DNA of 38,638 nucleotides. Origin: Clostridium sp. CAG:1193 (GTDB lineage Bacteria > Bacillota_I > Bacilli_A > RF39 > UBA660). Location: assembly GCA_000436255.1 (NCBI GenBank), contig HF990819.1:17943-56580 (forward strand). The letters run 5' to 3'. Of the stretch, positions 2-30,164 are shown piece after piece. How positions within the stretch are numbered: the stretch's first letter is position 1; each line of letters opens with the position of its first letter. The notes beneath the pieces were generated by a model. The model made no database searches. It was not told where the DNA came from and worked only from the letters and a program-made list of their open reading frames with translations. Position numbers and translations under genes: made by a program.

Positions 2-577
2 TTACAAAGATATTTAGCAAAAACTGAAGGTGCAACTATAATGGATGAAGGGCTAGTAAATGCCGATATAAATTTAGATGGAAATACAGATGCTGTAGAT
101 GTAAGTTTACTAAGAAAATACTTAGCAGGATATAAGATGGACTTACCTTACTTAAAATATAAGGTAGGAGATGTAAATTTAGATGGAACATTAGATGCAT
201 TTGACCTAGTAAGAATAAAAAAATATCTAGCAAAACAAGTAGAATTAACAGATGAATCAAAAATAAATGCTGATATAAACCTAGATGGAAACATAGACAA
301 ATTAGATGAGGCGTTATTAAAAAAATACTTAGCAGGATATAAGATGGATTTGCCTTATCTAAAATATAAAGCAGGAGATGCAAATCTAGATGGTATAGTA
401 GATATATTTGATTTAGTAAGAATCAAAAAATATATTTCAAAACAAGTAGAATTAACAGATGAATCAAAAATAAATGCTGATATAAATCTAGATGGAAACA
501 TAGATGAAACTGATTTGGATTTCTTAAAAGAATATTTAGCAGGAAACTATGACAGTCTACCAATAATTCAAAATTAA
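2..577 (+). CDS. 3' part of a secreted protein ending in tandem dockerin modules; the ORF is open to the left window edge, so it is 5'-truncated here
   Basis: The reading frame is open from nt 2 (LQRYLAKTEGATI...). It has repeated EF-hand-like dockerin segments: DINLDGNxDxxDxxLLKKYLAG and GDxNLDGxxDxFDLVRIKKY. The ORF-track start at 41 is an internal Met. Confidence 0.8.
   Translation, partial: LQRYLAKTEGATIMDEGLVNADINLDGNTDAVDVSLLRKYLAGYKMDLPYLKYKVGDVNLDGTLDAFDLVRIKKYLAKQVELTDESKINADINLDGNIDKLDEALLKKYLAGYKMDLPYLKYKAGDANLDGIVDIFDLVRIKKYISKQVELTDESKINADINLDGNIDETDLDFLKEYLAGNYDSLPIIQN
59..577. repeat. Tandem 207-bp (69-codon) coding repeat, about 2.5 copies with units starting at 59, 266 and 473; each unit encodes one two-segment dockerin module
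   Basis: The units NADINLDGN..ELTDESKI recur in frame at exactly 207-nt spacing with high identity. Confidence 0.85.
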
Positions 578-4206: not shown

Positions 4207-6210
4207 GTGATAATATTGGCGTATAAATATGTTTATCAACATAATACCAATGATTGTGCGGTTGCATGTTTACTTTCTATAATTAGGTATTATAAAGGGA
4301 ATAATACTTATGAAAATATTCATTATTTAACACATTGTGATAATAATGGAGTAACTGCTTTAAATTTAATTAATGCAAGCAATAAGTTGGGTTTTGAAAG
4401 TAGGGGTTTAAAGGTTGAATATGCTCATTTAAAAAATTTAAAAATACCTATTATTGCACATTTAATTCTAAAGGATGGATATAATCATTATGTTGTAGTA
4501 GAAAAAATAAAAGAAAATACCATTTATATTTTTGATCCTGCAAAGGGGAAAATAAAATATAAAAAAGAAGAATTTTTAAAGTTATGGAGTAATGTAGTAA
4601 TAGAATTAAAACCTACTCGTGTATTAGATGTAATAAATGAAAAAGAGATTAACTTATTAATCGATATTATAAAAAATAACATAAGTACTTATTTAATAGT
4701 TTCCTTTGTTTCATTTTTAGCAATAATATTAACGTTAGTTTCTAATTATTACTTTAGTACACTTATTAAAAATAGTGCATTAAGTATATTAATATTTTTC
4801 TTGTTTATAACTTTTATTAAAGAAATAAATGATTATATAAGAGGATTAATAATAATTAAATTAGAAAGTAAAATAGAAAGTGATATTAATAAAACTACAC
4901 ATGAAAAATTGTTATTGCTCCCATATTATTATTTTAATAGTAGAACTACAGGTGATATTATTTCAAAGATGCAAGATTTAGATTATATTAAAGAACTTAT
5001 AATTAAAGTGCCTATCTATTTACTAATTGATATTACTCTTATGGTTTTATCTACAATTATACTTTTAAATATAAGTATTAAATTATATATAATATTTTTG
5101 TTTGTATGTTTATTATATTTTTTAGTGTTATTACTATTTGATAAAAAAATAAAAAAAATGATACGTATAAATCAAGAAAACAAAATAATAAATAATGAAA
5201 TATTAATAGAGAATATAAAATCTATAAACACGATTAAAAATTTAAATATAGAAAGTGTAAGAAATGATATATTTAATCAATCATATGATAGTTACCTTAA
5301 AGATAAAAAACGATATGAAAAAACAATTAATAAAGAATTATTCATAAGAAATTTAATAATACTTATGGGTTTAAATATTATACTTTATGTAGGCATAAAA
5401 ATAGTAGATCTTAAAGAATTAATACTTTTTGACTCAATTGCAATATATTTTTTAGAAGCCATTAAAAATATTTGTGAATTAAACCCATTATATAAGAATG
5501 CGATAAATGCGTTAAAAAGAGTCAAAGAGATATATAAAATTGATATTCCTTCCTATCAAAAATTAGAAATTGATAATTTTGATATTCATATAAATAATCT
5601 TAGTTATTCATATAATGGTTATAAAAATATTTTTAAAAACCTAAATTTAAATATATTAAGTAAAGAAAAAATTGCTGTAACAGGATTTTCTGGTTGTGGT
5701 AAAAGTACATTATTTAAATTAATAAATAAAACATATCAAATAGAAAATAACAAAATATTTATCGGGAAAACTGATATTAATAAGATAAATACAAGTGATA
5801 TAGTTTCTTATATATCACAAGAAGAAATATTATTTAAAGATACTTTATATAATAATTTAACATCATATAAAAATATTAAAAATGAGACTGTAATGAAAAT
5901 TAGTAAAATAACAGGTCTTGATAAAGTTATTAAAAGTAAAAATATGAATTTAAATAGTTTTATATTAGAAGATGGTATAAATTTTAGTAAAGGTGAAAAA
6001 CAAAAAATAATTTTGACAAGAGTTTTACTTAAAAATAATAATATATTAATATTAGATGAAGCATTAAATGCATTAGATGAAAGTGAAGAATGCAAGATAT
6101 TAAATAGAATTATAAAGTGTTATAGAAATAAAACAATTATTTATATAACACATAGGAAAAAATGTATTTCTTTATTTGATAGAGAAATAAAATTGAAAGG
6201 AGAGGTATGA
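4207..6210 (+). CDS. Bacteriocin/competence-peptide type ABC exporter with an N-terminal C39 double-glycine peptidase domain (LagD/ComA/PedD class)
   Basis: C39 motifs QHNTNDCAVACLLSII (Gln/Cys), HYVVVEKI (His) and DPAKG (Asp). A six-TM region follows. NBD has Walker A GFSGCGKST, Walker B ILILDEA and H-loop YITHR. TTG 4216 (aggggg RBS 8 nt upstream) is a plausible alternative start. Confidence 0.9.
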   Translation: MIILAYKYVYQHNTNDCAVACLLSIIRYYKGNNTYENIHYLTHCDNNGVTALNLINASNKLGFESRGLKVEYAHLKNLKIPIIAHLILKDGYNHYVVVEKIKENTIYIFDPAKGKIKYKKEEFLKLWSNVVIELKPTRVLDVINEKEINLLIDIIKNNISTYLIVSFVSFLAIILTLVSNYYFSTLIKNSALSILIFFLFITFIKEINDYIRGLIIIKLESKIESDINKTTHEKLLLLPYYYFNSRTTGDIISKMQDLDYIKELIIKVPIYLLIDITLMVLSTIILLNISIKLYIIFLFVCLLYFLVLLLFDKKIKKMIRINQENKIINNEILIENIKSINTIKNLNIESVRNDIFNQSYDSYLKDKKRYEKTINKELFIRNLIILMGLNIILYVGIKIVDLKELILFDSIAIYFLEAIKNICELNPLYKNAINALKRVKEIYKIDIPSYQKLEIDNFDIHINNLSYSYNGYKNIFKNLNLNILSKEKIAVTGFSGCGKSTLFKLINKTYQIENNKIFIGKTDINKINTSDIVSYISQEEILFKDTLYNNLTSYKNIKNETVMKISKITGLDKVIKSKNMNLNSFILEDGINFSKGEKQKIILTRVLLKNNNILILDEALNALDESEECKILNRIIKCYRNKTIIYITHRKKCISLFDREIKLKGEV

Positions 6211-6347
6211 AAGAATTAAACAATATTGAATTAAATAATATAAGTGGTGGTTTTAAATGGATAATAGGAGGTGTGATTGGTGGTATTTTAGCATTTATTG
6301 TAGGAGTATTAGATGGTTTTACAAGGCCATTAAAATGTAATAGTTAA
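6207..6347 (+). CDS. Double-glycine-leader peptide 1 (46 aa): MKELNNIELNNISGG / FKWIIGGVIGGILAFIVGVLDGFTRPLKCNS
   Basis: The ATG overlaps the exporter stop (ATGA). RBS aaaggagagg. The leader matches the ELxxIxGG consensus. The mature part is hydrophobic with GxxxG repeats. It is below the ORF-track size cutoff. Confidence 0.8.
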   Translation: MKELNNIELNNISGGFKWIIGGVIGGILAFIVGVLDGFTRPLKCNS

Positions 6348-6349
6348 TT

Positions 6350-6469
6350 ATGAGAGAGTTAAAAATAAATGAATTAAATAGTATAAGTGGTGGATGCATA
6401 ATATCACGCTATATATATAAGTTTATTATAAAAACATTCCGATTATTTTTTAAACCGACATTTATGTAA
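6350..6469 (+). CDS. Double-glycine-leader peptide 2 (39 aa): MRELKINELNSISGG / CIISRYIYKFIIKTFRLFFKPTFM
   Basis: It starts 2 nt after the peptide-1 stop, which suggests translational coupling; there is no SD of its own. The leader is nearly identical in pattern to peptide 1. The mature part is cationic and aromatic. Confidence 0.7.
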   Translation: MRELKINELNSISGGCIISRYIYKFIIKTFRLFFKPTFM

Positions 6470-6479
6470 AGGAGGAATT

Positions 6480-6635
6480 ATGGAACTTAATAAAAAAGAA
6501 TTAAATGATATTATTGGAGGTAGTATTTCTGGAAGTATTATATCGAGTATAGTAAGGGGTGGAATACTTATATTAGAACTTGGTAGAAGTTTTGGAAGTG
6601 CATTAAGAAGATTACTAAAGAAAAAATATTGCTAA
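6480..6635 (+). CDS. Double-glycine-leader peptide 3 (51 aa): MELNKKELNDIIGG / SISGSIISSIVRGGILILELGRSFGSALRRLLKKKYC
   Basis: Strong RBS aaggagg 5 nt upstream. Leader ELNDIIGG. The mature part is amphipathic and strongly cationic at the C-terminus. Confidence 0.8.
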   Translation: MELNKKELNDIIGGSISGSIISSIVRGGILILELGRSFGSALRRLLKKKYC

Positions 6636-8223: not shown

Positions 8224-8251
8224 AAAAAGAAAAAATTAATTTTCTTTTTTT
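8222..8251. terminator. Possible weak bidirectional hairpin between convergent genes
   Basis: aaaaaaagaaaa / ttttcttttttt inverted repeat, almost entirely A-T, so stability is low. Confidence 0.35.
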
Positions 8252-9684
8252 TATAAATCTAATACTTGAGTATCATCAAGAGATGGAGGTTTAATAATAG
8301 TTTGAACATTATTTACAGGTTCATTACTAACTGATGGGGTATCAGATTTGAATAAACTTTTCTCAGTTACAGGTGAATAAATTTTAGCACTATTTTTTAC
8401 ATCGTTAACATTAAGTTGACTAGTTTTAGATAATTCAGTTTGCTCAATTGCATTATGTAAGTCATACTTATATGCACTTGATGCATTTTTATCATCAGCA
8501 ACATCATCAAGTTCGATTAATTTAATTATTTCTTCAAAAGTGGTATATCCATTTATTACTTTTTCAAGACCATCTTGAAGTAGAGTATTAACATCAGTAT
8601 TGTATACTAAATTACGAAGTTCATCTTTAGGCATATTATTAGAAATTGCATCTCTTATTTCTTGGGTAATTAATAATACTTCATGAATTGCAATACGACC
8701 TCTATAACCACTTCCACATTCAGGACATCCAACTGCAGAATATATTTCATTTATTTCCATACCAAATACTTTTCTAAATATTTCTTTTTCATAACTATTA
8801 GTTGGTCTTTTTTTCTTACATTTATCACATAATTTTCTTGCTAGTTTCTGTGAAATTATTCCTTCAAGAGCACTTGCAAGTAAGTATCTTTCAACTTCCA
8901 TATCAAGTAAACGTTCAATTGTATTAAGTGAGTTATTAGTATGTATTGTTGATAATACTAAGTGACCAGTAATAGATGCTCTAACTGCTATTTTTGCTGT
9001 TTCATTATCACGAATTTCTCCGATCATTACTATATCTGGGTCTTGTCTTAATACAGAACGCAATACATTAGCAAATGTTAAACCAATTTCACTATTAACT
9101 TGAACTTGGTTAATTCCTTTTATATTCATTTCTATCGGATCTTCAACCGTAATAAGGTTAGTTTCAGTTCTATTTAATTTTTGTAAAATAGAGTATACAG
9201 TAGTAGATTTACCACTACCAGTCGCACCTGTAACTAATATTATACCAGAAGGTATATTTATAAGTTTTGAAATCTTTTTAAAGTTTCTTTCACTAAATCC
9301 TAAGTATTCAATACCTTTTAAACTCATCGAATAATCAAGAATACGAATAACTATTTTTTCACCTTCATTAGTTGGCAAAGAAGAAACACGGAGATCCAAA
9401 TTTTCTTCTTTAATAGTAGTTTTAATCGCACCGTCTTGTGGTAATCTTACTTCAGTAATATTCATACCAGACATAATTTTAATACGTGTAATCAAATTTT
9501 TCTTAAGAGTGTTTGGTATAGTTGTATAATCTGATAATAATCCGTCAATACGAATTCTAACTTTCATTTCATCTTCTTCAGGGTCAAAGTGAATATCACT
9601 AGCACCCCTTTTAGAAGCATCATAAAGTATTTCATTTACTACTTCAACTATAGGCAACTTCTCATAATCAAAAGTTTTAATCAT
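8251..9684 (-). CDS. pilB: GspE/PilB-family type IV pilus / type II secretion-like assembly ATPase (ComGA-like short form) with a C-terminal extension of about 83 aa
   Basis: ASDIHFDP, Walker A VTGATGSGKSTT, Asp/His boxes (IRDNETAKIAVRASITGHLVLSTIHTN) and a tetracysteine motif CDKCKKK...CPECGSGYRGR. RBS gggagg. Confidence 0.85.
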   Translation of the reverse strand: MIKTFDYEKLPIVEVVNEILYDASKRGASDIHFDPEEDEMKVRIRIDGLLSDYTTIPNTLKKNLITRIKIMSGMNITEVRLPQDGAIKTTIKEENLDLRVSSLPTNEGEKIVIRILDYSMSLKGIEYLGFSERNFKKISKLINIPSGIILVTGATGSGKSTTVYSILQKLNRTETNLITVEDPIEMNIKGINQVQVNSEIGLTFANVLRSVLRQDPDIVMIGEIRDNETAKIAVRASITGHLVLSTIHTNNSLNTIERLLDMEVERYLLASALEGIISQKLARKLCDKCKKKRPTNSYEKEIFRKVFGMEINEIYSAVGCPECGSGYRGRIAIHEVLLITQEIRDAISNNMPKDELRNLVYNTDVNTLLQDGLEKVINGYTTFEEIIKLIELDDVADDKNASSAYKYDLHNAIEQTELSKTSQLNVNDVKNSAKIYSPVTEKSLFKSDTPSVSNEPVNNVQTIIKPPSLDDTQVLDL

Positions 9685-9787
9685 AAACTGCCTCCCAATT
9701 TATTCTTTCTAAAATACCTATGGTATTTATTATAAATTTATTATATAATAATAGAGGAATAATATCAAGTAAGAATTTTGGGGTGAT

Positions 9788-12700
9788 ATGATGAAAAAAA
9801 AGAGAAATGGTTTCTTTTTGTCAGAAACAATGATAGTAATGACAGTCGTTGCAGTTGTTATATTAGGAGTATTTAAAGTATTCTCAAGTGTTTACACAAG
9901 ATATAAAGAAAGTGAGAACTATAATACAATAAATTCAATAAATGCTCTTTCAATATTAAACCAATACTATGACTCATATGATATTAATATATTAACTATA
10001 TTAAATGGAAATTATTATGTTGATTTAACTAACTTAGATACATATGAAAGTGAACATTATGACAATTTAAAAAGTACACTTAATGTAGATAAGGTGTATT
10101 TATTTGATGGAACTAAGTTATTTAGTGGAGAGAATATATATAATTTTGATCTAAATACAAGAAAGTACTTAAAAACATTAAGTAAGAAAAATTATGATAC
10201 TATGCTTGTAGTAAAACTAAAAAGTGAAGAGTATGCTAGTGTAGAAGTAAAAGGTAATGAAATAGTTACTTTAGTAGGAGACTCTAACGATGAATTTGTA
10301 ACGTATGTAGAGTTAAATACTGAGTTTTTTGATCCAGGATATATTAACTGGATTGGTGATAAACCTAAAATAACAGGATCAGTAGATACTACGAAAGAAG
10401 GAACATATTATTTAACATATGACTTTAATGGATATTTATTAAGAAGAAAAGTAATAGTAACAAAAGCTGTTTATAACTATGATTACACAGGTGGTGCTCA
10501 AACATTTACTGCACCATCTTCAGGATATTATAAATTAGAAACTTGGGGTGCTCAAGGTGGAACATCTTTAAATAATAATGTTCTTACAACACCAGGTGGA
10601 TATGGGGGATATAGTAAAGGAGTAGTTTATTTAAAAAAAGGTGAAACTGTATACATATATGTTGGTGGAAAAGGTCAAGATGGTACAAAAGGTAAAAATG
10701 CTACAGGGGGATATAATGGTGGTGGAAGTGGAACATGGGATACCACTGATGATGAAAGTGGTGGTGCAGGAGGAGGAGCCACACATATTGCAAAAGCATC
10801 AGGATTATTGTCATCATTAGAAAGTAACAAATCATCAATTTTAATAGTAGCTGGTGCAGGAGGAGGCTCTAGTTGGACATATGAAGTTGGACATGGTGGG
10901 GGCTTTACAGGAGTAGTGACTAAAACTACTAATCAATCAGTAGCAAATCAAGTAATGGGTTATGCATTTGGAAAAGGCCAAAATGCAACTGGTGTAGGTG
11001 CTAATGATGGAGTTGGTGGAGGAGGCGCTGGATATTATGGTGGATATTCAAACGATGTAAAAAACAAATCTGCCGGTGCTGGTGGTTCAGGGTACATTGG
11101 AAATGATTTATTAACAAATAAAGCAATGTATTGTTATGGGTGTGTAAATTCTACATCCCCAGATACATATACAGTATCAACTACAAATGTATCTGATACT
11201 GCAATCGAAAACTATGCTAAAAAAGGAAATGGTTATGCAAGAATAACACTTGCATATAAAGAAGAAAGTGAAGATGCTAAAACTTATAATTATACAGGTA
11301 ATGTTCAAACATATACAGTTCCTAAAACAGGTTGGTATAGAATAGAAGCATGGGGTGCAGCCGGTAATAACAATTATAGTGATTATGTAAAAACTTTAAT
11401 ACCAACAAAAGGTGGTTATACAAAAGGAGAAATTTACTTAACAAAAGATGAAAAACTTTATGTGTATGTTGGAGGTATAAGAGAAACATTTAACTGTTGT
11501 ACACAACAATCTGGTGTTGGTTCTGGTGGCGCTACTGACATAAGGCTAGTTAGTGGGGATTGGAATAATGCTGATTCATTAAGAAGTAGAATAATGGTTG
11601 CTGGTGGAGCTGGTGGCTCTTACCTTGATCCAAGTGCTCCAAGAGGCGGAAGTGCTGGTGGACTTATATCTGAAAATGTAATTTTAAGTTATGAAACAAC
11701 ACATCTTGCAGGGCCTACTACACAAACATCTAGTGGAGCTGCTGGTACTAGTGGATCAGTTGGTGGATTTGGATATGCCGGTACTGTAACAAATATAGCA
11801 TATAGCCCAGGTGGTGGTGGCTACTATGGTGGAAGTGGAGCAGCAGCAAGTGCAGGTGGTTCATCATTTATATCTGGATATGCTGGTGTTAATGCAATAG
11901 ATTCATCAGGAAATCACACAAATGATACAAAACACTATAGTGGTAAATACTTTATTAATGGAGAAATGCAAGCAGGAGTTAATTTAGAATCTGGTAAAGC
12001 AAGAATAACATATATAGGTGAAAATAAATCAACCAGAAATACGAAACTAGATAATGTAAGATATATAAAAGATTGTGTTTCAGGTAACCAAACTGATAGT
12101 ACAAATAGATGGAATGAAATACAAGCAATATATAATGGTAGCAACATTGCAAAAGGAAAAACTGCTACTATGGTAAGTGGTACTTTATCACTACCTGCAA
12201 AAATAACTGATGGAGATATAGGAAAATATGCTACAGGGAATGATTCATATAGTACTGGTAACTGTGTATTAATAGATTTAGGACAAAGCTATAATCTTGA
12301 TGAAGTTGCTGTATGGCGTAATTATGAAACAATATTTAATGCTACTAAAAATACAGTTACATCAGTATCAAGTGATAATACTAACTGGACTACTATAATA
12401 ACAGATAGTAAAATAGAAACTCCAGAAGGTAAAAGAATGACGGCATATTATTACGATAATGAACAAAATAATATATTAACTAATTATACTTTTAGTGATT
12501 ATACAAAAGTAGACTGGCCTTGGGATAAAACTTTAAATAGAAGTTTAGGAATTGTCCCTACAAATTGGTCTAGTTATAATAGTGGAGTAGAAGAACCTGA
12601 AAAAGGATATCATGCGAGATTTGATAATAGTCCATTTGGTTATAATATGGTGGTATTTCCTAATTTAAATTCATCTATAAATCAAACTGGAAGATGGATG

Positions 12701-13033
12701 GGTATATATATAAATAGCATTAATGCGAATGTAATAAAAGCAAATGCGACTTATGAAGTAGTTATGGATATTTATCCAACAATAAAAGAATTTACTGTAA
12801 CAGGTGGTATATGGCATAGTAATAAGAATACTCAAACTTATGAATTTTCTAGTGCATTCTTTACAATTGCCACATCAAAAGAAAATATAAATAAATGGAT
12901 AACTGTAAGAAGAGTAATTACAACACCTACAACTTTAAATGAATCTGCAGGAACTAATTTATTTATTTATGGTAATGCTGGAAAAGAAGGAACAGCATAC
13001 GTAAGAAATATAAAACTTAGAAGAGTGAGTTAA
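9788..13033 (+). CDS. Giant modular type IV pilin-like protein (1081 aa): prepilin signal, Ig-like module, two glycine-rich (ALK/LTK-type) domains, discoidin-like module and a C-terminal beta-sandwich-like module
   Basis: N-terminus MMKKKRNG|FFLSETMIVMTVVAVVILGVF gives Gly at -1, Phe at +1 and Glu at +5, followed by about 20 hydrophobic residues. Downstream modules are listed separately. Confidence 0.85.
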   Translation: MMKKKRNGFFLSETMIVMTVVAVVILGVFKVFSSVYTRYKESENYNTINSINALSILNQYYDSYDINILTILNGNYYVDLTNLDTYESEHYDNLKSTLNVDKVYLFDGTKLFSGENIYNFDLNTRKYLKTLSKKNYDTMLVVKLKSEEYASVEVKGNEIVTLVGDSNDEFVTYVELNTEFFDPGYINWIGDKPKITGSVDTTKEGTYYLTYDFNGYLLRRKVIVTKAVYNYDYTGGAQTFTAPSSGYYKLETWGAQGGTSLNNNVLTTPGGYGGYSKGVVYLKKGETVYIYVGGKGQDGTKGKNATGGYNGGGSGTWDTTDDESGGAGGGATHIAKASGLLSSLESNKSSILIVAGAGGGSSWTYEVGHGGGFTGVVTKTTNQSVANQVMGYAFGKGQNATGVGANDGVGGGGAGYYGGYSNDVKNKSAGAGGSGYIGNDLLTNKAMYCYGCVNSTSPDTYTVSTTNVSDTAIENYAKKGNGYARITLAYKEESEDAKTYNYTGNVQTYTVPKTGWYRIEAWGAAGNNNYSDYVKTLIPTKGGYTKGEIYLTKDEKLYVYVGGIRETFNCCTQQSGVGSGGATDIRLVSGDWNNADSLRSRIMVAGGAGGSYLDPSAPRGGSAGGLISENVILSYETTHLAGPTTQTSSGAAGTSGSVGGFGYAGTVTNIAYSPGGGGYYGGSGAAASAGGSSFISGYAGVNAIDSSGNHTNDTKHYSGKYFINGEMQAGVNLESGKARITYIGENKSTRNTKLDNVRYIKDCVSGNQTDSTNRWNEIQAIYNGSNIAKGKTATMVSGTLSLPAKITDGDIGKYATGNDSYSTGNCVLIDLGQSYNLDEVAVWRNYETIFNATKNTVTSVSSDNTNWTTIITDSKIETPEGKRMTAYYYDNEQNNILTNYTFSDYTKVDWPWDKTLNRSLGIVPTNWSSYNSGVEEPEKGYHARFDNSPFGYNMVVFPNLNSSINQTGRWMGIYINSINANVIKANATYEVVMDIYPTIKEFTVTGGIWHSNKNTQTYEFSSAFFTIATSKENINKWITVRRVITTPTTLNESAGTNLFIYGNAGKEGTAYVRNIKLRRVS
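10253..10471 (+). other. Ig-like module (DUF5011-like pattern) inside the giant pilin
   Basis: VTLVGD..FVTYVELNTEFFDPGY....ITGSVDTTKEGTYYLTY..........KVIV. The same pattern occurs at 17128-17352. Confidence 0.55.
10472..11257 (+). other. Glycine-rich domain copy 1 (Pfam Gly_rich / ALK-LTK glycine-rich-domain-like)
   Basis: YNYDYTGGAQTFTAPSSGYYKLETWGAQGG...PGGYGGYSKGVVYLKKGETVYIYVGGKG...GGYNGGGSG...GGAGGGATHI...ILIVAGAGGGS...GNGYARITLAY. Confidence 0.65.
11279..12019 (+). other. Glycine-rich domain copy 2
   Basis: KTYNYTGNVQTYTVPKTGWYRIEAWGAAG...KGGYTKGEIYLTKDEKLYVYVGG...GSGGATDIRL...RIMVAGGAGGS...PGGGGYYGGSG...SGKARITYIG. It is collinear with copy 1. Confidence 0.65.
12041..12410 (+). other. 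Discoidin / F5-8 type C-like (galactose-binding-like) module
   Basis: RWNEIQAI...ITDGDIGKYATGN...CVLIDLGQSYNLDEVAVWRNYE...SSDNTNWTTI. Confidence 0.5.
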
Positions 13034-13034
13034 T

Positions 13035-13994
13035 TTATAATACTTTCCATATAAAGAATATTATTGTAGATATAGATGCATGTAATATCCTTGAAATAAA
13101 ATATGGAAAGTATTTTATTTTTGTATCACTAATAATACTTAGTACTTGCATATGTACGGATAGCCCACCAAAAGAAATAAAAAATACAGAAATTAATGCT
13201 TGTTTATATAATGGTATTTTAAGCATACTTAAATATTTTAATCCTTGTGTCATTTCAAATATTCCATTAATTATTGATTTATAATAAGGACTAACACTTA
13301 AATTATTATTAATAAGAGTAGTCAGTACTAAAAATATAGTAACTGTGCCTAAAATTAGTAATAAAGTACTAATACTACTTGTTATAGCATTAGATAACAT
13401 TTGACCAAATGATTTATCAGTTCTAGAACTATTCATACTAATAATTGCATTTTTTAAAGATACTTTTGTAGTGTCTTTTTTCGATATATAATAATTTCTA
13501 AATATTAAACCAATAAATAAGTTTCCAATATAATGTGATATTAAAATACACATACCAATTTCTTTATTATTTAAGAAAGTTATTGAAAGGGTGCCTAGTA
13601 TAAATAATGGATTAGAAAAATGAGTAAATGTAAGAAGTTTAGTTGCTTCTTTATCATTGATTTCACCATTTAAATATAGTTCTTTAGTGTATTTAGCACT
13701 ACTAGGAAATCCACTTAAAATGCTTAATATAATTATAAATGCTCCAGTACCATTTATTTTAAATAATTTATACATAACATCTTTAAGAAGTGTACCAAGT
13801 AATTTGGGGAAACCTAAATCTATAAGTATATTTCCAATAACAAAAAATGGAAACAAAGATGGGAATATACTATTTTCCCATATATTAAATGAAAATTTAA
13901 CTGATTCTAAAACATCAGCACTTTCAATTAATACTTCTACACTTATTAATATCATTATTAAAAGAAGTAAAACATTTGATAATATTTTTTTCAT
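13035..13994 (-). CDS. ylbJ: Sporulation integral membrane protein YlbJ-like (nucleoside-recognition/Gate-domain family)
   Basis: Polytopic membrane protein with FNIWENSIFPSLFPFFVIGNIL. It sits next to a ylbL homologue, as in Bacillus. Confidence 0.65.
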   Translation of the reverse strand: MKKILSNVLLLLIMILISVEVLIESADVLESVKFSFNIWENSIFPSLFPFFVIGNILIDLGFPKLLGTLLKDVMYKLFKINGTGAFIIILSILSGFPSSAKYTKELYLNGEINDKEATKLLTFTHFSNPLFILGTLSITFLNNKEIGMCILISHYIGNLFIGLIFRNYYISKKDTTKVSLKNAIISMNSSRTDKSFGQMLSNAITSSISTLLLILGTVTIFLVLTTLINNNLSVSPYYKSIINGIFEMTQGLKYLSMLKIPLYKQALISVFFISFGGLSVHMQVLSIISDTKIKYFPYFISRILHASISTIIFFIWKVL

Positions 13995-14035
13995 AATAAC
14001 TCACTTTCTGATATACTAATATAAAGAGGGATAAG

Positions 14036-15019
14036 ATGATTAGTAAATTATATTCAAAAATAAAAAATTTTTTAAAAGATAATATAATATATATTTTGTT
14101 AGTATTAATAACTATTACTATTTCTAATATACCAATGCCTTATCATATAGAAACTTATGGAGGATTAATTAATATTAAAAATAAAGTAATAGTAGATAAT
14201 GAATATGAAAGTATGGGCTCATATAATTTAACCTATGTTTCTGAGATAAAAAGTAATATTTTTACAGTACTTTTATCTAAATTTAATAAAGACTGGGATT
14301 TATATAAAAATGAAAATACTAAAGAAAAAGCATCTGATTTGAATTTAAGGGGAGAATTACTTTTATATAATTCATTTAGTAATGCCACGTATGTTGCATA
14401 TACATATGCGAAAGAAAAAATAAACATTGTATCATCAAGTGTATATGTTATTTATATAGACAAAGATGCATCTACTAACTTAAAAGTAGGAGATAAAATT
14501 AATTCTGTTAATGGCTTTGATATATCAAGTTTAAGTAATTATTTAAATGTTGTAGAAAATAGTAAAAAAGGTGATAAGTTAAAATTAATCGTTAATGATA
14601 ATGAAGAAAAATATATAGTGGTAAGTGAATATAATGGTAAAAAAAATACACTTATAGCTTTAATATGTAATAATTCATATGATAAGAACGTAACATTTAA
14701 TTTTAATAAAAATGAATCGGGCCCATCAGGAGGATTTATAATAGCACTTAGTATTTATGATAAATTAGTATCTGCTGATATATCTCGTGGGTATAAAATA
14801 TCTGGTACAGGAACAATTGATATAAATGGTTTAGTTGGAGAAATTGATGGTGTTAAATATAAATTAAAGGGCGCAGTTAAAAATAAAGCGGATATTTTCT
14901 TTGTTCCTGTTAATAATTATAATGAAGCAATTAAAGAAAAAAACGAAAACAATTATGATATAGACATAGTTAAAATATATAAATTTAGTGATGCGATTAA
15001 GTATTTAGAAAGTAAGTAA
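14036..15019 (+). CDS. ylbL: YlbL/SepM-family membrane protease (PDZ plus Lon-like S16 C-terminal domain)
   Basis: N-terminal TM segment and a PDZ-like region (LKVGDKINSVNG). Lon-C motif SGPSGGFIIALSIYDKL...ISGTGTIDINGLVGEIDGVKYKLKGA. Confidence 0.8.
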   Translation: MISKLYSKIKNFLKDNIIYILLVLITITISNIPMPYHIETYGGLINIKNKVIVDNEYESMGSYNLTYVSEIKSNIFTVLLSKFNKDWDLYKNENTKEKASDLNLRGELLLYNSFSNATYVAYTYAKEKINIVSSSVYVIYIDKDASTNLKVGDKINSVNGFDISSLSNYLNVVENSKKGDKLKLIVNDNEEKYIVVSEYNGKKNTLIALICNNSYDKNVTFNFNKNESGPSGGFIIALSIYDKLVSADISRGYKISGTGTIDINGLVGEIDGVKYKLKGAVKNKADIFFVPVNNYNEAIKEKNENNYDIDIVKIYKFSDAIKYLESK

Positions 15020-15046
15020 TTAGTTTTATAAACTAATTTTCTTTTG
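15018..15046 (+). terminator. Rho-independent terminator
   Basis: aattagttt / aaactaatt 9-bp stem, 3-nt loop, T-rich tail. It overlaps the stop codon. Confidence 0.5.
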
Positions 15047-15097
15047 TAATAATATTCACTTTAAAATCATATTAATTAATGGAAAGAGAGGAATGTT

Positions 15098-15802
15098 ATG
15101 AAACAAATTGTACCTTTTGTAAAAGAAATCGAACTAAAAAACAATATTGAGGAAATTACTAGTATATCTTTAGATCACACTTTAAAAAGTAATGGATTAA
15201 ATGAAATAAATGGAGAATTTTCTTTATATTTTGAGTATAAAGAAAACGAAATAAGTGTAAATACAGAATCATATTCATGTAAGATACCATTTAATATAGA
15301 TTTGGATGATAGATACATATTAAAAGATTCTAATATAGATATTGATGATTTTTATTATGAAATAGAAGATAGAAAAGTTATACTTCATATTGATGTATTA
15401 GTAGATAATATTGATATAAAAGAAAGTGAAATTGAAATTATGCCAAGAAATATTGATAAAAAAGTATCAGAAGAATTTAATGATGAAAGAGCTATTGAAG
15501 AAGAAAAAGGGGATGAAGATATTAAAATAGATGATTTATTTAAAGAAATTGATACAGATGTAGATTTAAGTGTGCCTAAAGAAGATGAAGAAGAAAGTAA
15601 AAAAACTATAGAAATATTTGAAACGTTTGATTCGAAAAGTGAAACTTATGTTACATATAATGTACATATAGTAAGAGAAAATGATACTATTGATTCTATA
15701 TGTAGTAAGTATGGTGTTACAAAAGAAGAATTATCTAATTATAATGAGTTAAAAGATATTAAATTTGGTGATAAGTTAATAGTACCAACATATAAAAAAT
15801 GA
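15098..15802 (+). CDS. spoVID: SpoVID-like sporulation protein (N-terminal SPOCS/DUF3794-like region, acidic linker, C-terminal LysM)
   Basis: C-terminal LysM YNVHIVRENDTIDSICSKYGVTKEELSNYNELKDIKFGDKLIVP and an acidic middle region. It is coupled to a ysxE-like gene, as in Bacillus. Confidence 0.55.
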   Translation: MKQIVPFVKEIELKNNIEEITSISLDHTLKSNGLNEINGEFSLYFEYKENEISVNTESYSCKIPFNIDLDDRYILKDSNIDIDDFYYEIEDRKVILHIDVLVDNIDIKESEIEIMPRNIDKKVSEEFNDERAIEEEKGDEDIKIDDLFKEIDTDVDLSVPKEDEEESKKTIEIFETFDSKSETYVTYNVHIVRENDTIDSICSKYGVTKEELSNYNELKDIKFGDKLIVPTYKK

Positions 15803-16692
15803 AAATATTAAAAGAAGTATTTGGTAATGATAAAAAAATATCTAATGTAACAAAAAAAGGAAAATGTATAATTGCAAAAGTAGATGAAGATTATATAGTG
15901 CTTAAAGAAAAAAATAATCATAATATAAATGAAACTTATGATTATTTAATATCAAGGGGTTTTTCATATTTTCCAAAAATTAAGTATGATAATTATAAAT
16001 ATAATTTGTATGAATATATAAAAGAAGTTAATGTTCCACTTGAACAAAAAGCTTTTGATATGATGAATTTATTATCATTACTTCATAATAAAACTACATT
16101 CTATAAAGAAATGGATATGGATGAATATAAAGGAATATATGAAGGAGTTATTAATAAGATAAATAATACAATTACATATTATGATAATCTTATGAATATA
16201 ATAGAAAGTCATGTATTTATGAGTCCATCAGAGTATTTAATTGCAAGAAATATATCTAAAATTTATGGTGCGCTTAACTATGCAAAAATAACTATAGATG
16301 AGTGGTATAACATAATTAAAGTAAGTGCAAAAAAAAGAGTTGTACTTCTTTATAATAATATAGATTTAGATCATGTTATAAGAAATAAAGAACTCTATTT
16401 AATTAATTTTGAAAAAACTAAACAAGGAATACCTATTTACGATTTATATGATTTTTATAAAAAATATGCATTTTCTTTTGACTTTGTTGATTTGATAAAA
16501 TATTATGAAAGTAAATATCCATTATTAAAAGAAGAAAAATTACTATTTTATACTTTAATATCGATACCAGATATTATTAAATTTACAGACACTGAGATAA
16601 ATAATTGTAAAACATGTAAAGATATAATTGATTTAATTTATAAATCAGAAGTATTAATATCTAAAAATACAGAAGAAGGAAATAGTGAATAA
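15799..16692 (+). CDS. ysxE: YsxE/CotS-family spore-coat kinase-like protein
   Basis: ATGA overlap with the spoVID-like gene. Size and position match the Bacillus spoVID-ysxE pair. The assignment rests mainly on synteny. Confidence 0.5.
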   Translation: MKILKEVFGNDKKISNVTKKGKCIIAKVDEDYIVLKEKNNHNINETYDYLISRGFSYFPKIKYDNYKYNLYEYIKEVNVPLEQKAFDMMNLLSLLHNKTTFYKEMDMDEYKGIYEGVINKINNTITYYDNLMNIIESHVFMSPSEYLIARNISKIYGALNYAKITIDEWYNIIKVSAKKRVVLLYNNIDLDHVIRNKELYLINFEKTKQGIPIYDLYDFYKKYAFSFDFVDLIKYYESKYPLLKEEKLLFYTLISIPDIIKFTDTEINNCKTCKDIIDLIYKSEVLISKNTEEGNSE

Positions 16693-16968: not shown

Positions 16969-18297
16969 ATGAAGAATAATAAAGGAATGATATTATCAAC
17001 ATATGTATATATGTTACTTGTTTTTTTCTTATTACTACTAGGAACAATGTTAGTAGTTTTAAACAATACAAAATTACTTGCAGATAAATTAAAAGAAAAT
17101 GCAAAAGATAATCCAGCTATTAATAAAGATTTAGTAAGTCTAGTATTAAATGGTGATGATGAAATGGTAATTGTAAAAGGAGATACATTTATTGATCCAG
17201 GATATATAGCAAAAACGCAAAGTGGAAAAACTTTAACTGCGAAAGTAGAAGGAAATGTAGATACAAGCACAATTGGTGAATATATAATTACCTATACAAT
17301 AAAGTATAAGCAATTTAGTAAAATGATAACTAGAAAAGTATACGTTACAGGAGCAAGTACTAAAGATTACATTGAAAACTTATATAATGATGATGAAGCA
17401 AGAACAAAAAATGGGTTAAAGAAAGATAATACAAGTGATAAGAATATAAGGTATGAAGGATCTAACCCAAATAATTATGTAAAATTTAATGATGAATTAT
17501 GGAGAGTAATTGGAGTATTTGGTGACAATGTAAAAATAATAAGAAGTGAATCAATTGGTAAATTATCTTGGGATTCATCGGCATCAAATATATATAGCGG
17601 ATATGGAATAAACGAATGGAGTGCATCTGATTTAAAAGAATATTTAAATACAATGTATTATGGCGGTTCTACTGTAACTTGTTATGGAGGTCGTAATAAT
17701 GCAACAACAACATGTCCAACAGCAAGTTTGAGCGAAACTGCAAAATCAATGATAGATAACCATATATGGAATACGGGGGCAATAAATTACAAAAAAGATA
17801 CTACTATAATGAATCAACAAACATATCAATTAAATACAGTACCAGTTTACAATGCAGAAAGAGGTAATGAAAGTGGTAAAGTGTGTTCAAGTAGTTCTTA
17901 TTGCGTTGATACTGTACCAAGAACAACAAAATGGCAAGGCTATGTTGCATTACCATATGCGACTGACTGGGCATATGCAAGTAGTGAGGTCGCATGCAAA
18001 ACAGATATACATGCCGGATATGATGTTACAAACGATTCAGCAGATAATATGACATGTAAAAAGAATAACTGGATGCATTATGGTAGTACAGCAACTGACG
18101 GAATGTGGACAATATCTGCTTATGCTCCTACTGATGGTGCTTATGTTGTATGGCTTGTTTATGGCAATGGAGTTGTATCTCATAGTAATGCTGCTGGTCC
18201 TGCATATGTTTTTCCAACCACATATCTTAAATCTGACGTAAAAATAACATCTGGAAGTGGTACTAGTGCTGATCCGTATATATTATCAACAAGTTAA
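16969..18297 (+). CDS. Pilin-like / pseudopilin-like secreted protein (442 aa) with an Ig-like module; it lacks the conserved Glu5
   Basis: N-terminus MKNNKG|MILSTYVYMLLVFFLLLLGTMLVVL has a basic stretch, Gly, then about 25 hydrophobic residues, with Thr at +5. An Ig-like module at 17128-17352 is shared with the 1081-aa pilin. The C-terminal domain is Cys-containing. Confidence 0.7.
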   Translation: MKNNKGMILSTYVYMLLVFFLLLLGTMLVVLNNTKLLADKLKENAKDNPAINKDLVSLVLNGDDEMVIVKGDTFIDPGYIAKTQSGKTLTAKVEGNVDTSTIGEYIITYTIKYKQFSKMITRKVYVTGASTKDYIENLYNDDEARTKNGLKKDNTSDKNIRYEGSNPNNYVKFNDELWRVIGVFGDNVKIIRSESIGKLSWDSSASNIYSGYGINEWSASDLKEYLNTMYYGGSTVTCYGGRNNATTTCPTASLSETAKSMIDNHIWNTGAINYKKDTTIMNQQTYQLNTVPVYNAERGNESGKVCSSSSYCVDTVPRTTKWQGYVALPYATDWAYASSEVACKTDIHAGYDVTNDSADNMTCKKNNWMHYGSTATDGMWTISAYAPTDGAYVVWLVYGNGVVSHSNAAGPAYVFPTTYLKSDVKITSGSGTSADPYILSTS

Positions 18298-18443: not shown

Positions 18444-19271
18444 ATGAGTAGTATAGAAGAATATACAGAAAAAACTTTTGAAAGTATAAAACATATTGAT
18501 GAATTTGAAAATGAATTTTGGGAGGCAAGAGAATTAATGCCTTTACTAGAATATAGTAAATGGGAAAATTTTCATAAAGTTATAGTACGTGCAATGATTG
18601 CATGTGAAACTAGTAATAATAAAGTAAGCGACCATTTTCCTGAGTTCAGGAAAATGGTTGATATAGGTTCAAAGACAAAAAGAGAAACAATTGATTATCA
18701 TTTATCTAGGTATGCTTGTTATTTAATAGTGCAAAATGCAAATCCTAGAAAAAAATCAGTAGCGCTTGGACAAACATATTTTGCAATACAAACAAGGAAA
18801 CAGGAAATTACTGAATCAGAATATTCAAGATTAACTGAAGATGAAAAGAGATTATATACTAGAATTCTTGTTAATAATAAGAATAAATATTTATTTAAAA
18901 CTGCTAGAGAATCTGGAGTAGAAAATTTTGGTAAATTTAATAATTGTGGATATAAAGGGCTTTATAATGGAGAAACAGCTAAACAAATAGCAAAACGTAA
19001 AAATATAAAAGAAGATGAAGATATTCTTGATTATATGGGTAGTGAGGAATTAGGTGCAAATTTATTCCGTATTACACAAACAGAAGCCAAACTAAAAAAA
19101 GATAATATAGGTAATGAAGATGATGCTTGTTTAACTCACTATAATGTAGGTAAAACAGTTAGAAGGGCAATTGAAGAACTTGGTGGTAATATGCCGGAAA
19201 CTTTGCCAACTCCAGAAAAATTTATAAAAGTATTAGAAAAAGATGAATTACAAAAAATTGAAAACAATTAA
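18444..19271 (+). CDS. dinD: DNA-damage-inducible protein D (DinD) family protein
   Basis: FESIKHIDEFENEFWEARELMPLLEYSKWENFHKVIVRAMIACETS...SDHF matches the conserved DinD-family N-terminal pattern as I remember it. Length is about 275 aa. RBS gggagg. Confidence 0.75.
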   Translation: MSSIEEYTEKTFESIKHIDEFENEFWEARELMPLLEYSKWENFHKVIVRAMIACETSNNKVSDHFPEFRKMVDIGSKTKRETIDYHLSRYACYLIVQNANPRKKSVALGQTYFAIQTRKQEITESEYSRLTEDEKRLYTRILVNNKNKYLFKTARESGVENFGKFNNCGYKGLYNGETAKQIAKRKNIKEDEDILDYMGSEELGANLFRITQTEAKLKKDNIGNEDDACLTHYNVGKTVRRAIEELGGNMPETLPTPEKFIKVLEKDELQKIENN

Positions 19272-29453: not shown

Positions 29454-30164
29454 ATGAAAAAGAAAATATTTGTAATAACATTAATACTAATTATAGTATT
29501 AAGTTTAATGAGTTTAAATTTTTTAAATAAGAAAGTATCTCCAGTATTATTTAGCTATGCACAAAGTGAGACAAAAAGATTATCTGCAATAATAATAAAT
29601 AAAGCAATTAATAAGCAACTTGCAAATGGAATAGATTTAGAAAAGTTATTTCAAATAGTTAAAAATACGGATGGAGAAATACAAACAATTGATTTTAATC
29701 CTCTTGTAGTAAATAAAATATTAAACACAACTACAAATGTAGTTTTAGTTAATTTAAAAGCAGTTGAAGAAGGAAATATAAATTTTGTTGAACTTCCAGA
29801 TATTCTTATTAATAGTAAAAACTTACAAAAAGGAATCATATATGAATTACCTATATTTGTATCTACAAATAATTTATTACTTTCAAATTTAGGGCCTAAA
29901 ATACCAATAAAACTTAATGTAATCGGTAGTGTAGAAAGTAATATTAAAACAAATATAAAAGAATATGGGATAAATAATGCTTTAATCGAAGTATTTGTTG
30001 AAATAACTGTAAGTGAGATGGTAAATGTACCATTTATTTCAAACAAAGTAAAAGTAACATCATCTATACCAATCGCATTTAAGGTAATACAAGGTAAAGT
30101 TCCTAGATATTATGGTGGAAATTTATCGAAAGAATCAAATATATTATCTATACCAATTGAATAA
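29454..30164 (+). CDS. yunB: Sporulation protein YunB-like
   Basis: N-terminal TM segment, length about 236 aa, and the general YunB pattern (AIIINKAINKQL...IQTIDFNP..VNKIL). Called from memory of the family, not from a search. Confidence 0.5.
   Translation: MKKKIFVITLILIIVLSLMSLNFLNKKVSPVLFSYAQSETKRLSAIIINKAINKQLANGIDLEKLFQIVKNTDGEIQTIDFNPLVVNKILNTTTNVVLVNLKAVEEGNINFVELPDILINSKNLQKGIIYELPIFVSTNNLLLSNLGPKIPIKLNVIGSVESNIKTNIKEYGINNALIEVFVEITVSEMVNVPFISNKVKVTSSIPIAFKVIQGKVPRYYGGNLSKESNILSIPIE

Follow-up and report, generated by a model that had tools for sequence, protein, structure and literature searches.

What a domain shared with the animal receptor kinases ALK and LTK does in a gut bacterium, and by what means it is presented there, are the questions raised by one gene of Clostridium sp. 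CAG:1193, an uncultured gut member of the Bacilli whose source DNA has a G+C content of ~25%. The gene lies on a 38,638-nt stretch of contig HF990819.1 (the window, whose numbering is used throughout), at positions 9788-13033 of the plus strand, and its open reading frame (ORF) encodes 1081 aa. The region 10472-12019, corresponding to residues 229-744, holds two glycine-rich domains (GRDs), and from its N-terminus onward the whole protein consists of a prepilin-type signal with a ~160-aa pilin-like module, an Ig-like spacer, the two GRDs (first subtype A, then subtype B), a module of the discoidin/CBM32-like kind, and a C-terminal domain. We consider it fairly probable that the product is a modular type IV pilin-like adhesin, which shows two heterotypic ALK-type GRDs together with CBM32-like modules by a pilin-type display mechanism.

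The GRDs are the firmest part of this picture. Both copies match the family PF12810 (ALK_LTK_GRD, formerly Gly_rich; model length 243), to which a first-pass annotation of this DNA had assigned them, and both are far over its gathering cut-off of 24.5 bits: copy 1 (residues 229-488; 10472-11251, plus strand) scores 141.6 bits (E 5e-41) and copy 2 (residues 500-745; 11285-12022, plus strand) 123.8 bits (E 1.5e-35). Scanned separately, they cover positions 6-242 and 6-243 of the model, respectively, that is, nearly all of it, and the whole protein reaches 249.6 bits. All six motif blocks that had been read from the sequence are found in both copies and in the same order. Block 1 reads YDYTGGAQTFTAPSSGYYKLETWGAQGG in copy 1 and YNYTGNVQTYTVPKTGWYRIEAWGAAG in copy 2, block 2 GGYSKGVVYLKKGETVYIYVGG and GGYTKGEIYLTKDEKLYVYVGG, block 3 GGAGGGATHI and GVGSGGATDI, block 4 ILIVAGAGGGS and IMVAGGAGGS, and block 6 GYARITL and GKARITY. 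The family match does not consist of mere glycine runs, as the blocks Y.YTG..QTF, LY.YVGG, and ARIT are conserved in both. Glycine accounts for 22.3% of copy 1 and 18.4% of copy 2 but for only 5-7% of the protein on either side of them, and there are nine glycine runs in copy 1 and five in copy 2. These domain identities are, in our judgment, practically certain.

The kinship with ALK and LTK, also proposed in the first-pass annotation, extends to the predicted fold. An AlphaFold model of the two-GRD region (residues 215-760), built from an alignment with 54 homologues, has a mean predicted local distance difference test (pLDDT) score of 80.8 and a predicted template modelling (pTM) score of 0.59, with most of copy 1 at pLDDT 84-97. 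In a Foldseek search of the PDB, all of the top 21 matches of this model are ligand-binding domains of ALK, LTK, and SCD-2 of C. elegans (E 1.6e-9 to 1.3e-6, probability 1.0). The family sequence profile likewise finds ALK chains (E 8e-11) and SCD-2 (E 1.6e-8) among the PDB sequences; a single-sequence phmmer search of the same sequences with the two-GRD region returned nothing relevant, and ALK is reached by the family profile only. The ALK domain binds a protein ligand and contains 14 glycine helices of the polyproline-II (PPII) type (PMC12227593). In our model, DSSP places the glycine runs in segments with neither helix nor strand (model residues ~142-226, pLDDT 73-97), and these confidently modelled segments are consistent, if indirectly, with PPII-type helices as in ALK.

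[quoted passage not shown] A Pfam scan of the 1081-aa protein detected no EGF-like domain, transmembrane helix, or tyrosine kinase of the sort that ALK/LTK receptors possess. To our knowledge, there is also no ALKAL-like ligand in bacteria, a further difference from the animal system. The bacterial protein shares a domain with the ALK/LTK receptors but is not such a receptor.

Beyond the animal receptors, the first PDB match scored as probable is the fiber protein gp24 of cyanophage Pam3 (7YPX; Foldseek E 0.014, probability 0.87), in which a TNF-like and glycine-rich tip has been proposed to recognize the host receptor and was likened by the authors to ALK, to 7LIR, and to gp38 of phage S16 (PMC9608196). 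Both phage tips, gp24 and gp38 of Salmonella phage S16 (6F45), consist of a TNF-like sandwich that extends into a glycine-rich lattice, a build that the predicted fold of the GRDs would share. A Foldseek search of predicted viral structures gave 89 matches at E<=1e-3, several of them annotated as virion structural or tail-fiber proteins. The frequency of the fold in such phage proteins, together with a Bro-N gene 5 kb downstream, might suggest that the GRD protein is the receptor-binding protein of a resident phage or a tail-fiber remnant of a prophage. This origin was rejected on gene context and is exceedingly improbable: the window contains no capsid, terminase, tail, or integrase genes, the neighbors are housekeeping and sporulation genes (topA, valS, alaS, ylbJ, a ylbL-like gene, ysxE, and yunB), the locus is syntenic across species, and the N-terminus is a prepilin-type signal, not a fiber attachment domain. 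The phage tips are also trimeric and chaperone-dependent, whereas the window protein is cellular, carries a prepilin-type signal, and gives no sign of a trimerization helix or a chaperone gene.

As for how one protein came to carry two GRDs, the first-pass annotation proposed a tandem duplication within the gene, and the domains are indeed adjacent, collinear, and alike in block order. BLASTP aligns copy 1 with copy 2 at 37% identity over 129 aa (E 2e-22), a resemblance far above chance. This supports the homology of the two copies but not a duplication in place, as the alignment is confined to the N-terminal half of the domains and the C-terminal halves belong to different subtypes. Copy 1 is of subtype A, recognized by the motif MYCYGC in its C-terminal half, where the subtype pattern is SGYIGN..L.NKAMYCYxC...YAKKGNGYARITL; copy 2 is of subtype B, with the pattern ATDIRL...SRIMVAG...SSFISG.AGVNAI...HYSGKYFING...GKARITY. 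At the DNA level, no repeat longer than ~30 nt was found that links the copies. Copy 1 is nearest to GRDs of other proteins, with up to 63% identity, which is above its identity to copy 2, and the nearest orthologue match of copy 2 (43-48%) is the single GRD of P0009 and P0020, two proteins that share the N-terminus and the discoidin-like tail. The nearest orthologues (P0003, P0008, P0009, and P0020) have a subtype-B domain only and lack copy 1. The different subtypes, the lack of a DNA repeat, and the B-only orthologues argue for the insertion of a heterologous GRD rather than for duplication in place, which we regard as very improbable, and the simplest history would be that a subtype-A domain was inserted before an ancestral subtype-B domain.

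The possession of two GRDs is in itself common. A scan of 1.84 billion cluster representatives (50% identity) yielded 6062 GRD relatives at E<=1e-3, some of which have as many as 11 matched stretches, or GRD repeats, in proteins as long as 7663 aa. Of the best 120 homologues, 66 contain two GRDs, 32 three, 16 four, and one five. The first-pass annotation had implied that the arrangement is unusual, which was overstated, as arrays of two to five GRDs are the norm among the relatives and the combination of a pilin with PF12810 is already on record in a published dataset. It was right in calling the bacterial members essentially uncharacterized; a literature search gave no paper on cellular bacterial PF12810 proteins.

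The means of display is suggested by the N-terminus, which had been read as that of a pilin. The sequence MMKKKRNG, followed by FFLSETMIVMTVVAVVILGVF, has the features of a class III (prepilin-type) signal (9788-9883, plus strand), namely a short basic leader ending in Gly, with the cut predicted after G8, Phe at +1, Glu at +5, and a hydrophobic helix at residues 9-32. It is the only canonical class III N-terminus among the ORFs of the window. The stretch G8-F9-F10-L11-S12-E13-T14-M15 is invariant in eight orthologues of 46-57% identity.

Behind the signal lies a pilin-like carrier module (residues 1 to ~160; 9788-10267, plus strand), which is homologous to small stand-alone proteins. Residues 1-152 align end to end with residues 1-160 of a stand-alone 168-aa protein of locus L046 (28% identity, E 1e-13), and the module also matches a 172-aa protein of L047 (23% identity, E 7e-7); further stand-alone pilin-like proteins are found in L048 (165 aa) and L049 (161 aa). 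This end-to-end homology to proteins of 161-172 aa that occupy the same slot of the locus argues that the first ~160 aa form a complete pilin-sized module onto which the passengers have been grafted, so that the whole would be a modular pilin. The prepilin-like character of the N-terminus is upheld by its invariance in orthologues, by the stand-alone homologues, and by synteny. Two short relatives of the carrier were also encountered. P0122 (228 aa) is 54% identical to the N-terminal 228 aa, comprising the pilin-like and Ig-like parts, and ends there, being either a passenger-less carrier or the product of a split gene, and in P0124 (130 aa) a carrier fragment of 66% identity is joined to a PhdYeFM antitoxin domain.

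Divergently from the GRD gene, across an intergenic region of 103 bp (9685-9787, by the ORF coordinates), runs a gene for an assembly ATPase of the PilB/GspE type (8251-9684, minus strand; 477 aa; Pfam T2SSE, E 1e-128). The NCBIfam models match at positions 106-484 of 486 for GspE (488 bits) and 177-560 of 564 for PilB (485 bits), both under the equivalog cut-offs. The protein has the N2 domain and the C-terminal ATPase core without an N1 domain, and the Walker A motif GATGSGKST and a CxxC...CxxC motif are visible. A 100% identical ATPase has been deposited as [quoted passage not shown] and as "MAG: Bacilli bacterium" (MAG, metagenome-assembled genome). Its Ser/Asn/Val-rich tail of ~90 aa (residues ~390-477) is matched by no GspE or PilB model, and the length of this tail varies among the orthologues, which have 440-544 aa. 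In the intergenic region, the best minus-strand promoter-like site (9768-9740; TTGATA, a 17-nt spacer, and TATAAT, 11 of 12 positions) faces the ATPase gene, but only as a match to the consensus. A search for intrinsic terminators gave none, and the promoter signals were uninformative, the counts of promoter-like sites being those expected from shuffled sequence.

Orthologous loci were compared in the window, L043, L045, L046, L047, L048, and L049. In all seven, the ATPase gene diverges from a gene whose product begins with ...KG, followed at the predicted cut by FF(L/A)xET. The ATPase is conserved at 68-81% across the loci, and the passenger-bearing protein is only ~53% identical in L043. In four loci (L046-L049), the gene that faces the ATPase encodes a stand-alone protein of 161-172 aa; in L043, L045, and the window, the carrier is extended by Ig-like, GRD, and discoidin-like modules. 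A second pilin-like gene (MNKKG followed by FSTVELLVSF...) usually comes next at the orthologous loci, where it may stand alone or bear an extension, such as Gly_rich_2 (PF21722) in L045; no homologue of this "type 2" class (KGFSTVELL...) was found in the window. When the ATPase was searched with tblastn against 44 loci, it was linked to a GRD gene at the true orthologues only, not at the paralogue loci. One weak match, in L025, was discarded, as it belongs to an unrelated Tad-type (CpaF/RcpC) cluster. That cluster (17029-20700 of L025, from a Bacilli MAG) is 7 kb away from a GRD paralogue, to which it is probably unrelated, and comprises an RcpC/CpaB-like protein, a CpaF/TadA-type ATPase, and two membrane-sized ORFs without assignment.

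Several observations weigh against a pilin-type adhesin. Neither the window, 38.6 kb long, nor the flanks of the seven loci contain a gene for a PilC-like platform protein (T2SSF), for a prepilin peptidase, or for an obvious major pilin, so that cleavage, methylation, and polymerization are inferred, and the other GRD paralogue loci do not adjoin pilus genes. Pfam does not recognize the N-terminus, N_methyl (PF07963) scoring 14.8 bits on the full protein and 17.3 bits on the N-terminal segment, under its cut-off of 21.2 bits. The stand-alone pilin-like proteins of the clade fall below it as well (14-20 bits), and more distant GRD relatives do have precomputed PF07963 matches. AlphaFold gives a weak model of the first 235 aa (pLDDT 65.6, 8 sequences), with helices at residues 13-42 (low confidence) and 48-63 followed by mixed alpha/beta structure to ~153, and a Foldseek search with this model gave no pilin match, only Ig-like ones for residues ~165-228. 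The alignment behind the model is shallow, because no more than four proteins were retrieved as homologues of the N-terminal 228 aa. On the side of the GRDs, the superposition on ALK/LTK is moderate (target-normalized TM score 0.34-0.48, root-mean-square deviation 7.5-12 Å, from Foldseek). We know of no bacterial GRD whose ligand has been identified.

The choice of anchor among the relatives cuts both ways. In a survey of prepilin signals in bacterial proteins of this family, about a quarter carry canonical class III N-termini (30 of the nearest 120 homologues and 31 of a further 131 representatives), and others have a variant without Glu5; the pairing with a prepilin-type signal is thus frequent in the clade and speaks for a pilin carrier. 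In the remaining GRD relatives the anchor is of another kind, for instance a camelysin/SipW-like, plain signal, or transmembrane segment. Since many relatives are anchored otherwise and the paralogue loci lack pilus genes, the GRD is not tied to pili and is thus a general surface module, for which the pilin is one carrier among several.

These points leave room for a membrane-anchored surface adhesin that works outside filaments, with the N-terminus serving as a signal-anchor or being cleaved, the protein staying a monomer in the membrane, and the ATPase aiding only extraction or display; this could take the form of a short bindosome- or pseudopilus-like structure, as for archaeal class III sugar-binding proteins. 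The lack of any pilC, pilD, or major pilin gene nearby in the seven loci would fit this, as would the very large passenger (~900 aa), and in related genomes many proteins of the class III type, with a variety of passengers, are encoded among housekeeping genes at a distance from any pilus operon. The ATPase, without N1 and under all equivalog cut-offs, moreover shows a faint match to the bindosome ATPase BasE. Against it, the carrier is a full 160-aa domain, not a helix alone, and is homologous to pilin-sized stand-alone proteins that come in pairs beside the ATPase; such a gene content is what filament subunits would be expected to show, and modular pilins with bulky passengers are known to enter filaments (PMC8179133). 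We see an anchored adhesin of this kind as possible, though unlikely.

The pilin-type adhesin that we favor has characterized counterparts. The concept of modular pilins was laid out by Raynaud et al. (2021) with Streptococcus sanguinis PilB (pilin and vWA) and PilC (pilin and lectin), and their Dataset S1 lists, without discussion, the architectures IPR012902-PF12810 (2 proteins) and IPR012902-PF12810 x3 (1 protein), as Dataset S2 does one PilY1 architecture with PF12810 (PMC8179133). In the S. sanguinis proteins as in the window protein, a prepilin-type N-terminus and a small pilin module bear a bulky binding module that folds independently, and the two systems have a lectin-like module, a monoderm host, and proposed adhesion at the tip in common. 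They differ in the passenger, which in the window protein consists of the GRD pair, the Ig-like spacer, and CBM32-like modules (~900 aa), no pilin with a GRD having been studied; and in the locus, which has only the ATPase and pilin-like genes in place of a full pil operon, with a sub-threshold N_methyl score and a predicted incorporation into filaments. PilY1/PilC of diderm type IV pili are also akin in being large, tip-associated adhesins with swappable N-terminal modules; PilY1, however, is not a pilin and docks on minor pilins by a C-terminal beta-propeller (IPR008707), which is absent from the window protein.

Besides the GRDs, the passenger comprises three further parts. The Ig-like linker domain (residues ~166-226; 10283-10465, plus strand), of the Bact_surface_Ig-like or Big_3-like kind, is detected below the Pfam thresholds (Bact_surface_Ig-like, 21.2 bits against a cut-off of 27; Big_3, 17.4 bits) and by structure, with the Big_3 domain 2kpn as a Foldseek match of probability 1.0 (E 0.014; phmmer E 0.019). 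Orthologues have a precomputed PF16403 match. After the GRDs comes a discoidin/CBM32-like module of the NedA-like, galactose-binding type (residues 805-878; 12200-12421, plus strand), which the first-pass annotation had foreseen. The orthologues P0003, P0008, P0009, and P0020 have precomputed PF22633 or PF00754 matches, but the scores in the window protein are only borderline: on the isolated segment, PF22633 (F5_F8_type_C_2) reaches 27.7 bits (E 4e-6), just short of its cut-off of 27.8, as compared with 23.1 bits on the full protein, PF00754 reaches 19.8 against 28.2 bits, and the tail behind the GRDs matches the CBM32 of C. perfringens NagH (2w1q) weakly (E 0.024). The domain probably spans residues ~760-895. 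The C-terminal domain (residues ~900-1081; 12485-13030, plus strand) matched no Pfam family and is absent from the orthologues P0008, P0009, and P0020; a second weak 2w1q stretch at tail residues 241-316 indicates that it may be a second CBM32-like beta-sandwich.

Variation between strains is concentrated in copy 1. The allele P0002, from locus L044, is 83% identical overall, with a DNA identity of 92-100% in the flanks and most of the gene. In a hypervariable patch of 540 nt (10568-11107, plus strand; residues ~261-440), the identity of the DNA to L044 falls to 50-82%, with sharp edges from 97% to 65% and from 82% to 93%, and that of the protein to 47-72%, as compared with 95-100% elsewhere. 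The patch corresponds to the core of copy 1, in which all of its glycine runs are located; copy 2 is 98% identical between the two alleles. A second, milder variable zone coincides with the C-terminal domain (about 12485-13030; 72-93% DNA identity to L044 against 92-100% elsewhere). By this DNA comparison, the 540-nt segment of copy 1 was replaced as a cassette by recombination between strains of the same species.

A neighboring gene shows the same on a larger scale. A second pilin-like carrier gene (16969-18297, plus strand) encodes 442 aa that begin with MKNNKG, then MILST..., without Glu at +5, and continue with an Ig-like domain (Bact_surface_Ig-like, E 8e-15). Compared with positions 7844-9118 of L003, the DNA is 100% identical on both sides, and between nt ~17340 and 18200 it is only 43-59% identical. 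The passengers encoded there are unrelated to each other: in the window, a stretch of ~310 aa that is not glycine-rich and belongs to no family, and in L003, a GRD of subtype A (PF12810); the 442-aa protein of the window contains no GRD. A small mosaic segment was also noticed nearby, at 18576-18725 within the Bro-N gene (18444-19271), with 67-88% identity to L003 amid DNA of 99-100% identity.

Such cassette exchange of exposed modules is as expected of adhesins or antigens under diversifying selection. It also has a parallel in the distal tips of phage glycine-rich receptor-binding domains, which are likewise variable. In the phage proteins, a conserved stem carries a variable distal tip (PMC9608196), and the window protein likewise concentrates its strain variability in the glycine-rich part.

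A working model for the modular pilin can be given as follows. A prepilin peptidase would cut after Gly8. The ATPase would act together with a platform protein encoded elsewhere, and the hydrophobic N-terminal helix would be built by them into a short filament of the type IV class. With a passenger of ~900 aa, the protein would be expected at the tip of the filament or as a sparsely incorporated subunit. The GRDs and CBM32-like modules would then face outward and might bind a surface ligand, for example a glycan or a protein, presented by host cells, other microbes, mucus, or food particles. Recombination could vary the specificity, through the 540-nt cassette of copy 1 in this gene and through the swap of the whole passenger at the neighboring carrier gene.

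The 1081-aa protein is present in exact copies on 17 metagenome contigs, and its 90% cluster has 160 members. Matches of the GRD protein in a scan of GTDB genomes are all at the level of paralogues (33-73% identity), and its relatives include proteins of Coprobacillus sp. CAG:605, of Mycoplasma sp. CAG:776, and of many MAGs of Hadza and rabbit guts, with several paralogues per genome. It is conceivable, though we hold it doubtful, that this clade runs a minimal type IV filament-like display system, made of a PilB-like ATPase and one to three pilin-like carriers with apparently no linked PilC or PilD, onto which interchangeable adhesin cassettes (the two GRD subtypes, Gly_rich_2, CBM32-like, and others) are grafted and exchanged between strains by recombination as a programmable repertoire. 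As a corollary, equally tentative, animal ALK/LTK would have inherited their ligand-binding domain from this receptor-binding module of bacteria and phages.

The domain is found by standard Pfam annotation, and both the modular pilin design and the combination of PF12810 with a pilin are already known. The gain thus lies in a hypothesis and in an example with good support; the kind of system is not new. The glycine-rich domain of ALK/LTK matters in medicine and has an odd structure, but the bacterial relatives, as numerous as they are (~6,000 clusters at 50% identity), are unstudied. This locus offers a tractable case, with two GRD subtypes on a small carrier, an adjacent dedicated ATPase, and, in its natural allelic cassettes, a pointer to the ligand-binding surface. 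From this locus one could learn what the ancestral GRD binds, how polyglycine lattices act as recognition scaffolds, and how abundant, uncultured gut Bacilli with small genomes attach to their surroundings.

Other surface-related genes were observed in related genomes and in the rest of the window. In a 23-kb locus (L042) on a 389-kb MAG contig from the Hadza gut, at least six genes have N_methyl-type N-termini, with Flg_new, Gly_rich_2, Gp10_C, and GRD as passengers; they are dispersed among genes of cell division and repair (mraZ, PBP, and mutL) with no pilus machinery nearby, and the layout suggests that class III signals are a general surface-display device in the clade. In the window, a C39-peptidase ABC exporter and two small ORFs (~6207-6347 and ~6480-6635) follow one another on the plus strand from 4207, the exporter ending at 6210. 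The small ORFs have double-glycine leaders (MKELNNIELNNISGG, followed by FKWIIGG..., and MELNKKELNDIIGG, followed by SISGS...), and the stretch 4207-6635 is an export locus of the class II bacteriocin type. This export arrangement recurs upstream of the ATPase in the orthologous locus L043.

At 41-577 (plus strand), a 178-aa protein contains two type I dockerin repeats (PF00404, E 3e-32), which hints at cohesin-dockerin surface assemblies in the clade. Genes of the sporulation type are located at 659-1486, 13035-16692, and 29454-30164, and include ylbJ, a SepM/YlbL-like PDZ-Lon protease, a SpoVID-like LysM protein, ysxE, a ylxY-like deacetylase, and yunB. Given these genes around the locus, this 25% G+C lineage of "Bacilli" appears to be a spore former with peptidoglycan.

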